Shown here: one piece after another, positions 13,768 to 15,922 of the stretch
Numbering within the stretch: the stretch's first letter is position 1
How the letters are laid out: each line of letters starts with the position of its first letter
NCBI GenBank assembly: GCA_965197475.1
Contig: CBDANF010000003.1
Span: forward strand, 672,001 to 736,000
DNA length: 64,000 nucleotides
Direction: 5' to 3'
From: Candidatus Poribacteria bacterium
GTDB taxonomy: Bacteria; Poribacteria; WGA-4E; WGA-3G
Position numbers and translations under genes: made by a program
The notes under the pieces: generated by a model
What the model saw: only the letters and a program-made list of their open reading frames with translations
What the model was told of the DNA's origin: nothing
Databases searched by the model: none

Positions 13768-14012
13768 GTTAACTAAAGTTTGGACAATTTTTAGTAAAAT
13801 CTAAAATACATTTTCTTTAGGTTAGCGGCGTTTGTAGTCGCGCAATTCATTGCGCCTTTTACAATTGTAAGTTAAACTTTGTGATACCCATACAGTAAAG
13901 TGAGATCACTTATAGTTTGTATCAAATGACCCCATGAGTTATACTATTAGTATTCGTTAAACTAACGGGTAGATGTATTTGCATCGCCGACACTTTCTTC
14001 ATGGAGGTCAAT

Positions 14013-15695
14013 ATGGACCGTAAGAAGGATACCGCCTACGGTATCAATCGACTGGAATCCAAGAATGCCAGAGCCGCTATTATTCAGAAGATTTCAGCAG
14101 ACTTTAATCTAATGCCTCTCGTTGCTGAAGCCTACTATAAACAGATTTCCACCTACTTTGAACAGCACGCCGATGTGCAACTTACCTCAGGGCAAATCTG
14201 CTATGAGGCAGTCGCCGCTGAGGAACCCGCAGGCAAACACATCGCTTTAGCGAAAAAAATCTCCTGTCGACTCAAGCTCAACGATGTTGAAGCCGACCTT
14301 GAAGTTTTAGCGACTTATGGGCTCGCAGGTCTCAGACGGCATCGGATCCTCCGATTGACCCAAGAAGCTTATGACCAAGAAGCCTTGCTGAGTTATGAGG
14401 ATTTGGCGGTGTTATTAACCACCAGTCCTGCCACCGTCAAACGCGACATCCGAGCGTTGAAGCAGTCCGGCTATTTCGTGATGACGCGCGGGGCGAAACA
14501 CGACATGGGCCCGGGACTGTCTCATAAGACGCAGATTCTCGAGCTGTACTTCAAAGCATACACCTTCACCGAGATTGAGCAAAAGACGAACCACTCCGAA
14601 CGGGCTGTCTACCGCTACTTGAGGGACTTCACACAAGTCGCTACGCTCCATCATCAAGGCTTTCCTAACGCACAGATACGCCTGATCACCCATCTATCTG
14701 ACCGGTTGATCCGCGAGTATCTCTCACTCTATGAGGAATACCAACACACAGATCGCATGACCCAACTCCTTCACCCAGAACCTGAGGACACAAAAAAGGG
14801 GGGACCTCTCATGAGCAAACCTCTAACCCGCACGCAAATCAACGAGAAGAAATTCAGACGCATCAGCGATAAGTCCCTACGACAGTTGCTCATTCACCGC
14901 TTTCTCAATGACTATGGTTATGACAAAGGCGAAGTCACTGCCACCGCCATTGTTGATGATATTCTTAAGACCGTTGAAGACTATTTCGTGATTACCCTTC
15001 CTTTGGAGAAACTCGCCACCGGCGATCAACTCCCGGATGAGCGTTTCTTGAGTTATGGACAACTCGTTTGGATGGCCGTCCCTATTGAAGAGCATCCAGA
15101 AAGAGGAAAGTCCATCGTCAAAACCCGCATGAAACCCATCATCCTGACTTACCTCGCCGCAGAGGATATTGAATCCTTTCGCAACGGTTTCACCTCCCGG
15201 CAATTGCGGATCAATCGCTTGGTCCGCTGGTGTCATCAAGCTTATGACCAAGGGGCATTATTGACACAACTCGACTTGGCAGTTTTGCTCAATGTCTGCG
15301 ATGCCGTTGTCTGTGATTATGTTAATGAATGGCAAAAAACCACTGGAGAACTCTTGCCCACCCGTGGCAATATCCATGACTTATCGGGGGCTATTACCCA
15401 TAAGAAAGAGATCATAACCCTCTATCTTCAAGGACATCTCACCCCCAGGATTGCCGCAAAGACCAAACACTCTAAGGAGGCAGTTGATAGATACATTCGC
15501 GATTATGAGAGCGTCAAAGTCGTTCGGAAAGCAACCGCAGATATTGATAAAATCTCACAGATTACACGACTTTCTAAACGTGTCATCTCTCAATATCTCG
15601 ACCTCATACCGCAGCACCAACTCCAAGCCATAGATGCAGACCTTGCCAATTCAGACTCAAACGATGAAGCCACTCACCAAGGAGAAGCCCAATGA
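14013..15695 (+). CDS. Tandem DUF1670-domain protein (two paralogous halves joined at an A6G6 tract)
   Basis: Two copies of AYDQxALL..DLAVLL, TRGxxHDxxxxxxHKxxI, HSxxAVxRY; GGAGG RBS before ATG 14013; second half has its own ATG 14811 behind AAGGGGGG. Confidence 0.8.
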   Translation: MDRKKDTAYGINRLESKNARAAIIQKISADFNLMPLVAEAYYKQISTYFEQHADVQLTSGQICYEAVAAEEPAGKHIALAKKISCRLKLNDVEADLEVLATYGLAGLRRHRILRLTQEAYDQEALLSYEDLAVLLTTSPATVKRDIRALKQSGYFVMTRGAKHDMGPGLSHKTQILELYFKAYTFTEIEQKTNHSERAVYRYLRDFTQVATLHHQGFPNAQIRLITHLSDRLIREYLSLYEEYQHTDRMTQLLHPEPEDTKKGGPLMSKPLTRTQINEKKFRRISDKSLRQLLIHRFLNDYGYDKGEVTATAIVDDILKTVEDYFVITLPLEKLATGDQLPDERFLSYGQLVWMAVPIEEHPERGKSIVKTRMKPIILTYLAAEDIESFRNGFTSRQLRINRLVRWCHQAYDQGALLTQLDLAVLLNVCDAVVCDYVNEWQKTTGELLPTRGNIHDLSGAITHKKEIITLYLQGHLTPRIAAKTKHSKEAVDRYIRDYESVKVVRKATADIDKISQITRLSKRVISQYLDLIPQHQLQAIDADLANSDSNDEATHQGEAQ

Positions 15696-15762
15696 GACCC
15701 TAATCCTATGTTCCCGACGAACTTTACTTCGCAAAACCGGGGCAGGTGCCTTGAAAATATGG

Positions 15763-15791
15763 TTGACAACCGCTACCGGTTTTGCTATACT
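15763..15791 (+). promoter_or_regulatory. Consensus sigma70 promoter inside the right end of the DUF1670 element
   Basis: TTGACA (15763-15768), 17 bp, TATACT (15786-15791); no convincing ORF downstream before the TIR. Confidence 0.7.
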
Positions 15792-15922
15792 TTAGACACG
15801 TTTATCGCTAAACGCATCATTTCTCAAAGAGGATGCTCGCGATCCCAACGCAACCCACTCATTAATGATCGCTGGGAAGCCAATAAACATCAACCTTCCA
15901 GCTATCCTATGGTCATTTGATA

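Follow-up and report, generated by a model that had tools for sequence, protein, structure and literature searches.

A DUF1670 gene pair as candidate mobility proteins of a site-specific insertion sequence in Candidatus Poribacteria

Background

Elements of the IS630/Tc1-mariner kind are short, have terminal inverted repeats, make a fixed 2-bp TA duplication and encode a DDE/D transposase with a paired-like helix-turn-helix (HTH). IS110 and IS1111 use a DEDD recombinase with a bridge RNA, insert in one orientation, often into repeated palindromes, and share a 2-nt core with the target. The serine recombinase element IS607 has no inverted repeats, and its 2-bp crossover with a non-palindromic dinucleotide explains its fixed orientation. 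In Tn554 and the RIT-type elements two or three tandem paralogous tyrosine recombinases act together in site- and orientation-specific insertion; tyrosine recombinases in general have the residues R-K-H-R-H/W-Y and a 6-8-bp overlap of the partner sites. The HUH or Y1 transposases of IS200/IS605 and IS91 carry HUH on a beta-sheet fold, and there are no inverted repeats and no duplication. In Tn7, which uses attTn7, and in IS1397 and ISKpn1, which target repetitive extragenic palindromes (REP), a DNA-binding protein picks a gene 3' end or a palindrome loop where insertion does little harm. The subject of this report is a DNA element at positions 13912-15926, on the plus strand, of a 64,000-nucleotide stretch of a Candidatus Poribacteria genome (assembly GCA_965197475.1, contig CBDANF010000003.1, positions 672,001 to 736,000), here called the window. 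Its sole conserved coding content is a pair of paralogues that are both full-length members of DUF1670 (PF07900), a family without an assigned function.

The element resembles IS630 and Tc1-mariner in being short and in having inverted repeats, a fixed 2-bp duplication and a bipartite paired-like HTH, but it has no DDE/D domain by Pfam and no RNase H fold by Foldseek, and the likeness to the transpos_IS630 model is limited to 15.1 bits, against a cut-off of 100, over an HTH only. It differs further in its TT or TC instead of TA, in its two paralogous proteins, and in a long one-sided target that is entered in a fixed orientation. Site- and orientation-specific insertion, a 2-nt core and, in one lineage, insertion in the loop of a hairpin repeat recall IS110 and IS1111, whereas the DUF1670 element has clear terminal inverted repeats and neither a DEDD domain nor a conserved structured RNA. 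The 2-bp TT or TC flank would be compatible with a crossover dinucleotide of the IS607 kind, which is insufficient for membership, and there is no resolvase domain by Pfam, no such fold and no invariant Ser among 79 family sequences; the PDB entry 2r0q appears in the Foldseek list of one protein only at rank 26 with an E value of 2.4. Tandem paralogues, and DUF1670 proteins of two and three units, are reminiscent of Tn554 and RIT, but DUF1670 shows no tyrosine-recombinase fold; there is no Phage_integrase match by Pfam, no such fold in Foldseek or in a PDB profile search, and just TT is shared by the partner sites. Unlike the HUH proteins, the DUF1670 fold is helical apart from one hairpin, and inverted repeats and a duplication are present. 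The harmless choice of target is like that of Tn7, IS1397 and ISKpn1, and here the stop codon is even restored, but those systems use DDE transposases and make 3-5-bp duplications whereas this insertion lies inside the last codon and involves 2 bp. The element therefore fits none of the compared families because the defining protein feature of each is missing. No mention of DUF1670 or PF07900 was found in the literature that could be searched, and the listings and abstracts returned by broader searches contained nothing on such an element; this is an insertion-sequence family not described in the searchable literature. Our reading, with a rough probability of 0.5, is that it is an autonomous insertion sequence of a new family in which the DUF1670 pair is the element's own transposase or recombinase, the catalytic role being what we infer.

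Results

Copies and ends of the element

When the element was used as query against the window's genome (G000; 5.7 Mb in three contigs), 22 raw matches were obtained, which correspond to 20 copies that have the same boundaries and are 92-97% identical. Thus, the multiple copies that the earlier note, made from the letters of the window, had proposed to look for by BLAST do exist. Eighteen of them are 2013-2022 bp long, one of 1782 bp has an internal deletion and one of 442 bp consists of the ends only; canonical copies are 2014 bp long and the window copy is 2015 bp. Its limits, 13912 and 15926, are those of the sequence common to all 20 copies and to copies in at least six related genomes, and not 13920 and 15922 as thought at first. 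The alignment of the ends of the 19 long copies showed that the shared sequence extends from ATAGTTTGTATCAAATGACC to GGTCATTTGATACTAT, starting with ATAG and ending with CTAT. The perfect 10-bp inverted repeat reported initially, TCAAATGACC / GGTCATTTGA, is present at 13922-31 and 15911-20, but the real perfect repeat is longer, 13 nt at 13919-31 and 15911-23. The left terminal inverted repeat (13912-13931, plus strand) and the right one (15911-15926, plus strand) hold as their core the 12-mer TATCAAATGACC, at a distance of 10 nt from the tip on the left and of 6 nt on the right, and the terminal repeats are imperfect. The inverted repeat goes far beyond chance: this 12-mer occurs 39 times in the genome and all 39 occurrences are at the ends of the 20 copies; extended end patterns of 20 and 23 nt, allowing up to 2 mismatches, gave exactly 20 genome matches each. 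Since the end words are confined to these 20 copies, no other element class in the genome has these ends, and the TA beside the 10-mers, which had been taken for the target duplication, is part of the inverted repeat. The left terminal 18 nt are invariant in 11 of 11 aligned elements, including three that are about 78% identical overall.

The 442-bp derivative is MITE-like (miniature inverted-repeat transposable element), and it is flanked by TC on the left and TT on the right; the same TC/TT mismatch is seen at one Actinomycetota locus (L059). Its deletion joint was also present in DNA contigs of two public runs. The derivative (G000:C3:94117-94558) occupies a site whose orthologues in two related genomes, G003 and G010, are filled by full-length copies. 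Contigs of two RNA libraries map to the element, with some depth in 26 and 27 of 30 bins, for which DNA carry-over is a possible source.

Target site and duplication

In the 19 long copies aligned, TT adjoins the element on both sides, outside the shared sequence; in the window these are 13910-13911 on the left, a TT that precedes 19 of 19 copies, and 15927-15928 on the right. Beyond the right end, 14 of the 19 long copies remain similar for another 70 to 112 nt, which belong to the 3' end of an oppositely oriented gene. In the window this target gene (15923-18139, minus strand) encodes 738 aa with LDL-receptor-B repeats, cohesin, dockerin and a FlgD_ig / Por_Secre_tail-like C-terminal domain (FlgD_ig 37.6 bits, cut-off 27; Por_Secre_tail sub-threshold at 21.9 bits, cut-off 27). 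The TAG of this neighbour (15923-25), directly behind which the insertion had been placed, lies inside the element, and the insertion point is the last Lys codon of the gene. All ten uninterrupted paralogous gene ends examined have YTAYTT followed by coding sequence, that is, Lys and stop. Filled sites read ..YAY-TT-[ATAG...CTAT]-TT-C.. and the empty site, as seen in the paralogous gene ends and in the pair of orthologous sites described below, is YYAY-TT-C.. and not the palindrome G-TA-C that the earlier note had predicted. The simplest reconstruction is that the element inserted into the TT of the last Lys codon and duplicated this TT. Because the element supplies A and TAG on the strand of the gene, the host protein is unchanged and ends with Lys and then the stop.

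With tblastn and the last 85 residues, 50 gene ends of this kind could be detected in G000 and 18 were occupied by the element, all in the same arrangement and orientation; thus 18 of the 20 copies lie in the last Lys codon of gene ends that are FlgD-Ig/T9SS-like (type IX secretion system). The same kind of gene end holds eight of eight elements examined in six other species of the genus. In the pre-insertion consensus TTAC-TT and about 25 nt to the right are conserved and nothing further left. Insertion is highly site- and orientation-specific, and a conserved target is found only to the right of the TT.

Two genomes of another genus in the same order, G035 and G026, bear on the duplication. 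A filled site in G035, one of four identical copies, reads gaaaccgag-T6 before the element and T3-cttcaaaactcgg after it, and the orthologous site in G026 is uninterrupted and reads gaaaccgag-T7-cttcaaaactcgg. The filled site has two T more than the empty one and this directly supports a 2-bp duplication. Five of the six copies in these two genomes sit in the loop of one repeated hairpin. The elements are about 78% identical to the window copy, their termini are the same except for one base in the left end of the G034 element, and protein A is about 80% identical between this sister lineage and the window's genus, as is protein B. As the sister lineage has the same termini and a different target, the choice of target has changed while the ends stayed fixed. 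Taken together, we are nearly certain that the insertion sequence is real, that it has been active recently, and that it duplicates 2 bp, TT, at targets chosen with remarkable precision. Among the relatives no orthologous empty site of the window copy was found; its two flanks map apart in them.

Two overlapping genes and the fused copy in the window

The open reading frame (ORF) in the window (14001-15695) is 564 aa long and matches PF07900 over two stretches (E value 1e-122, 408 bits, cut-off 25), from which a tandem DUF1670 protein had been described as the only cargo. That DUF1670 is the sole conserved coding content was confirmed, but the native form is two genes. The longest ORF has 294 aa, and not 564 aa, in 18 of the 19 long copies; canonical copies have orfA of 270 aa (element positions 90-902) and orfB of 294 aa (899-1783), the stop codon of orfA (TGA) and the start codon of orfB (ATG) overlap as ATGA, and the orfB ribosome-binding site, AAGGGGG or AAGGAGG, lies within the end of orfA. 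In the window copy the plus strand carries the orfA-equivalent part, paralogue A, at 14001-14810 and orfB, paralogue B, with 294 aa and a stop at 14811-15695. The G6 run at 14798-14803 (plus strand), in the orfB ribosome-binding site, is found only in this copy among 16 readable copies, and its one extra G fuses the two frames; contigs from four public metagenome runs were all one base shorter at this run. Since the other copies and these contigs are one base shorter, the 564-aa tandem is either a mutation of the window copy or a homopolymer error of the assembly. By analogy with the natural fusions described below, the fused copy may still be active. A programmed frameshift at the A6G5-6 run was considered and rejected, as the run is the orfB Shine-Dalgarno sequence, the genes overlap by ATGA and some copies have AAGGAGG.

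The mean pairwise difference at codon positions 1, 2 and 3 is 0.026, 0.028 and 0.137 in orfA and 0.014, 0.005 and 0.073 in orfB, and by this pattern of differences both genes are under purifying selection among the copies. An intact orfB is present in 18 of 18 long copies; in the same 18, orfA encodes 269-270 aa in 13, is fused in the window copy, is truncated in two, and in two the start pattern was unmatched.

Protein domains, models and the A-B contact

Apart from PF07900, all Pfam matches of the window ORF are to HTH models, among which HTH_23, HTH_28 and HTH_29 match a segment with the pattern H-S...R-Y, and the NCBIfam matches, likewise over the HTHs, are all sub-threshold (IS21 18.8 bits, cut-off 160; IS630 15.1, cut-off 100; IS1 15, cut-off 100). 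AlphaFold2 (AF2) gave models with a pLDDT (predicted local distance difference test) of 86.0 for orfB and 86.6 for orfA. From the N-terminus the models have three helices, a beta hairpin, a long helix and an HTH of winged-helix type, followed by an extended linker, a second HTH and C-terminal helices. The best Foldseek matches in the PDB were MntR/DtxR, the Pax paired domain, Cbp1 and TFIIB-type proteins with TMq of about 0.15; the MntR/DtxR likeness of both models is weak (E value 0.03-1, TMq about 0.16). There were 358 and 887 matches up to an E value of 10 for the two models, and the top 50 listed were all HTH proteins. A PDB profile search returned one designed repeat protein (E value 0.00029) and the ESM Atlas yielded HTH_23-type clusters only, none scoring above 0.81, and a tblastn search of a plasmid collection gave no match.

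A complex prediction for A with B scored 0.33, whereas the best of 3 controls scored 0.00. Of 80 solved complexes 58 reached the mark used in this prediction, as did 2 of 110 mismatched pairs, and passes at 0.60 or under comprised 7 of the 80 solved complexes and both passing mismatched pairs. In the A-B prediction the runs agreed in at least 65% of the contacts and the partner pLDDT was at least 68. A contact between A and B is supported by the natural fusions and, weakly, by this prediction.

A candidate functional site

Residue conservation was examined in 79 sequences averaging 28% identity and is given in orfB numbering. H197, H220 and Y228 are invariant, and R139, P183, G186, D190, G192, K198 and Y262 are at least 90% conserved; an alignment headed by orfA that holds both paralogue types has the same conservation pattern. 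D190, H197, K198, H220 and Y228 correspond to D168, H175, K176, H198 and Y206 of orfA. The motifs TRG..HD..HK and HS..AV.RY that had been noticed in both halves of the window ORF are thus real, and their H, K, H and Y are kept across the family. The conserved residues map to the linker and to where helices 1 and 3 begin in the second HTH. Among 7 naturally fused proteins of two or three units, with 19 units altogether, the first units of all 7 are without part or all of the conserved set. H220 is gone in 6 of 6 alignable first units, the seventh (P0145) being truncated before that region, and among these six Y228 is also lost in four and D190 and H197 in two. The first units of P0144 and P0263 differ at every one of D190, H197, K198, H220 and Y228, only Y228 is retained in that of P0137, and P0246 and P0135 retain H197 and have lost H220 and Y228. 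The first units all retain R139, A144 and Q147 and are still recognised as DUF1670, from which it follows that the site residues are not needed for the fold. Later units of the fusions retain D190, H197, H220 and Y228, with K198 replaced in five. This residue set behaves like one functional site, as in pairs of an enzyme and a pseudo-enzyme, and the pattern of joint loss favours a catalytic or metal-binding role.

Distribution and a related element in Actinomycetota

Of 41 related genomes 11 contain PF07900, 6 of them belonging to the 24 other genomes of the genus; where complete, the genes are always A and B pairs. In public data 1,019 representative clusters, defined at 50% identity, matched orfB at an E value of 0.001 or less. 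Many of these relatives are on contigs of about 1-3 kb, as collapsed repeats are, and two are labelled 'transposase' by their source. Records of DUF1670 come from Poribacteria, Actinomycetota and Gemmatimonadales, and the genome of Methanosarcina acetivorans, included as a control, was matched by the Pfam model too; sponge metagenomes and metatranscriptomes are among the runs in which the sequence is present.

In one Actinomycetota genome a 1.73-kb segment is present at six loci with 99.7-99.8% identity; orfA (263 aa) and orfB (265 aa), which overlap by 4 nt as in Poribacteria, take up its length. The ends, with TC as the flank on either side, read TC-ACTCTGGGATCGAATGAGCC...GGCTCATACGAAACTAT-TC and carry TCGAATGAGCC / GGCTCATACGA; the flanks resemble one another on the right (GGTGCGCGCGTTCGG-like) and are unrelated on the left. 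Both phyla have in common the end core TCRAATGAsCC and the right tip ACTAT, and similar cores lie upstream of orfA at further Actinomycetota loci. Inverted ends at DUF1670 homologues, which had been suggested as a check, are seen in the related Poribacteria elements as well as in Actinomycetota. Thirty proteins were placed in a maximum-likelihood tree, where A and B are separate clades with 100/100 support each and the orfA-equivalent part of the window copy is in clade A. Because both clades contain both phyla, A and B are an ancient pair that has been passed on together. The natural fusions have two units (about 520 aa) or three (930-950 aa) and no extra catalytic Pfam domain.

Two side observations concern the same family. 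In a metagenomic protein of 400 aa (P0222) a DUF1670 unit is fused to a DnaG-type CHC2 zinc finger (PF01807, E value 3e-08), and judging by this fusion the family may be linked to replication or priming proteins. Between species the element is more conserved (85-92% at the nucleotide level) than the flanking target genes (about 75-83%), as seen in loci L034-L039 compared with G000, a difference that points to transfer, gene conversion or repeated re-insertion and less to simple vertical descent.

The 3' non-coding region

The region behind orfB (15696-15910, plus strand) has a mean pairwise difference of 0.017, which is below that of any coding part. It contains an outward-facing promoter of sigma-70 type (15763-15791, plus strand) with TTGACA, a spacer of 17 nt, TATACT and a TG extension, matching in 11 of 12 positions, and the extended -10 sequence TGnTATACT is kept in 11 of 11 aligned elements, including the three that are about 78% identical overall. 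No Rfam match to the region was obtained at an E value of 1 or less, and RNAalifold found no conserved fold in 9 elements, the consensus being -1.08 kcal/mol with a double change in 4 of 14 pairs. A structured RNA as a general feature of the region was rejected on these results.

Discussion

The DUF1670 pair is the best candidate for the mobiliser because the element is multi-copy, an orthologous empty site exists, the genes are under purifying selection and the two-gene plan is kept across phyla; the patchy distribution of the DUF1670 elements, in 11 of 41 related genomes, was also counted toward mobility. It is quite probable that A and B are the element's own and required mobility machinery. 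That the pair itself is the catalyst, and hence a new class of transposase or recombinase, we consider to have somewhat less than an even chance. Of the earlier proposal that the pair is the mobilising enzyme, the mobiliser part is supported and the enzymatic part is still inference. How such a system would work can be outlined as follows. A and B would form a hetero-oligomer with at least four HTH modules that binds the end cores, one subunit binding the target flank, and the A/B complex itself would cut and join the DNA with a 2-bp stagger. The conserved site P-x-R-G-x3-D-x-G...H-K...H-S-x5-R-Y around the second HTH would be used for catalysis, possibly as a metal site (D, H, H), with or without the tyrosine as nucleophile. 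From the outward promoter near the right end, transcription may cross a transient junction of the two ends and enter orfA, or it may enter flanking DNA, and targets would be re-aimed, to gene 3' ends, hairpin loops or GC-rich palindromes, while the ends stay fixed. Tentatively, then, DUF1670 would be a new class consisting of a heteromer of two multi-HTH paralogues with a D-H-K-H and tyrosine site on an HTH scaffold, a 2-bp exchange and a one-sided target that can be re-aimed.

Several observations weigh against this reading. Pfam and NCBIfam detected no catalytic domain in the proteins and only HTH-type matches, and neither model had a match at an E value of 0.001 or less with Foldseek in the PDB or in the BFVD fold search. 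As the PDB, BFVD, profile and ESM Atlas searches gave none, no known nuclease, transposase or recombinase fold is present, and the initial observation that DDE, HUH, serine-recombinase and DEDD motifs are absent extends to domains and folds, none being detectable. The H-S...R-Y residues could, more soberly, be DNA-contact or core residues of an ordinary HTH, because the same segment matches HTH_23, HTH_28 and HTH_29, and the Y sits where these families have a buried aromatic residue. Neither a circle nor a head-to-tail junction was found in the G000 assembly or the retrieved loci, and none was among the joints listed for four runs, in contigs that cannot show rare forms. Moreover, the flanking dinucleotide is identical in all insertions of a lineage and for that reason the duplication rests on one orthologous pair and the argument from paralogues.

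A different explanation is that A and B are only DNA-binding subunits for synapsis and targeting and that a recruited, ubiquitous host enzyme breaks and joins the DNA. In TLC-phi an HTH protein, XafT, reportedly activates the host XerD, which would be an analogy. Both models are chains of HTHs with a small helix and hairpin domain and have no nuclease or recombinase fold, the elements are too small for other content (1.73 kb in Actinomycetota) and the fusion to a CHC2 zinc finger hints at contact with host replication proteins, all of which fit a host enzyme. The residues D190, H197, K198, H220 and Y228, however, are present in both paralogues and much of the set is lost jointly, which looks like an active or cofactor site and not like docking; a 2-bp exchange is unlike Xer-type recombinases, for which it spans 6-8 bp, and since the family occurs in several bacterial phyla and in Methanosarcina the host partner would have to be universal. 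We regard recruitment of a host enzyme as unlikely, though a serious contender. It is improbable, in our estimate, that the element is non-autonomous and is moved in trans by a conventional transposase with A and B as passenger regulators, for example repressors or addiction-type factors. Such a transposase could be sought in a genome rich in DDE elements, the 2-bp duplication and the paired-type HTH are features of IS630/Tc1, and the HTH parts do match IS630, IS21 and IS1 models weakly (15-19 bits against cut-offs of 100-160). But the end 12-mer and the extended ends are confined to this family, and the duplication is TT, or TC in Actinomycetota, and not TA. The ten most repeated other families of the genome are of IS4/5 type, DDE_Tnp_4, five IS1595 groups, IS3, IS1 and ISKra4; none of the ten is IS630 or shares the element's ends, so that an IS630/Tc1-type owner of the inverted repeats, which the earlier note had allowed for, was not found among them, and none of these families is known to make a 2-bp duplication. 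A passenger would also not be expected to stay a coupled A and B pair with similar end cores across phyla and under selection in every copy, and sets of identical or near-identical copies are found in genomes from separate families and phyla, four at 100% in G035 and six at 99.7-99.8% in Actinomycetota.

The earlier note had compared the R/H/K...H...Y residues of each half with tyrosine recombinases acting on a 2-bp TA core, with GTAC as the empty site. The invariance of H197 with K198, H220 and Y228 would agree with a divergent enzyme of this kind, as would the site- and orientation-specific insertion and the spacing of H197/K198-H220-Y228 (about 23 and 8), which is near the box II-H-Y spacing of XerD, Cre and lambda Int (23-26 and 9). 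The likeness was not borne out by the rest of the evidence: the core is TT and the empty site YYAY-TT-C, the junction of the element and the target have just 2 bp in common, there is no Phage_integrase match and no recombinase among the Foldseek matches of either model, the segment matches HTH_23, HTH_28 and HTH_29 by sequence, and the preceding arginine and lysine are not positioned as in that fold. A tyrosine-recombinase-like enzyme is thus very improbable. Least of all would we expect, reasoning from the analogy of the IS110 bridge RNA, that an RNA from the conserved 3' region under the outward promoter guides target choice or catalysis. The 231 bp of 3' non-coding sequence are the most conserved part of the element (0.017), the promoter matches in 11 of 12 positions and is kept in the lineage that is about 78% identical overall, and a 2-nt core with targets in repeat sequences recalls IS110/IS1111. 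On the other hand, the Rfam and RNAalifold results given above (no match; -1.08 kcal/mol, double changes in 4 of 14 pairs) speak against such an RNA, and so does the Actinomycetota element, in which only about 70 bp follow orfB and about 60 bp precede orfA, so that there is no room for it; in addition, the lineages of genera g1 and g3 differ in target.

If DUF1670 does mobilise the element by itself, the family would gain a function, and an insertion-sequence family whose proteins match no known transposase chemistry would be added to those described. With about 560 aa in all, the pair would also be a compact integrase that is naturally retargetable. The precision is unusual in that one codon of a gene family is hit and the stop is rebuilt, and a sister lineage with identical ends uses another long target; this is of interest for site-specific DNA integration, and because the two lineages differ in target while A and B are each about 80% identical, the determinants of specificity are mappable. 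The element also explains assembly breaks and rearrangements in these genomes of sponge symbionts.

With regard to rearrangements, the copy at locus L035 in G020 combines the left flank of one G000 copy with the right flank of a second (C3:49943 and C2:1160545), and two G000 copies have an identical left flank and different right flanks; by these flanks the copies of the element mark rearrangement points. G000 is very rich in insertion sequences, and among its 14 largest repeat families several have 20-56 members (the ten scanned are loci L084-L093). Within the element the word CTATTTCGTGAT(G/T)AC at 14471-14485 in orfA and at 14981-14995 in orfB resembles the right junction at 15923-15937 (CTATTTCCTGATTAC), probably by chance because the flank part of the junction is specific to the window copy; a TCAA-type word in the right target flank is a weak lead. 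Upstream of the element two genes on the minus strand encode a DUF6575 protein of 392 aa (11907-13085) and a protein of 136 aa without a Pfam family (13119-13529). Between them and the element, just upstream of the latter, is a palindromic REP-like repeat of about 57 nt (13807-13863), of which BLAST found at least 45 further copies in the genome, and the summed contig depth in sponge metagenome runs is very high over the bins at 13633-13854.

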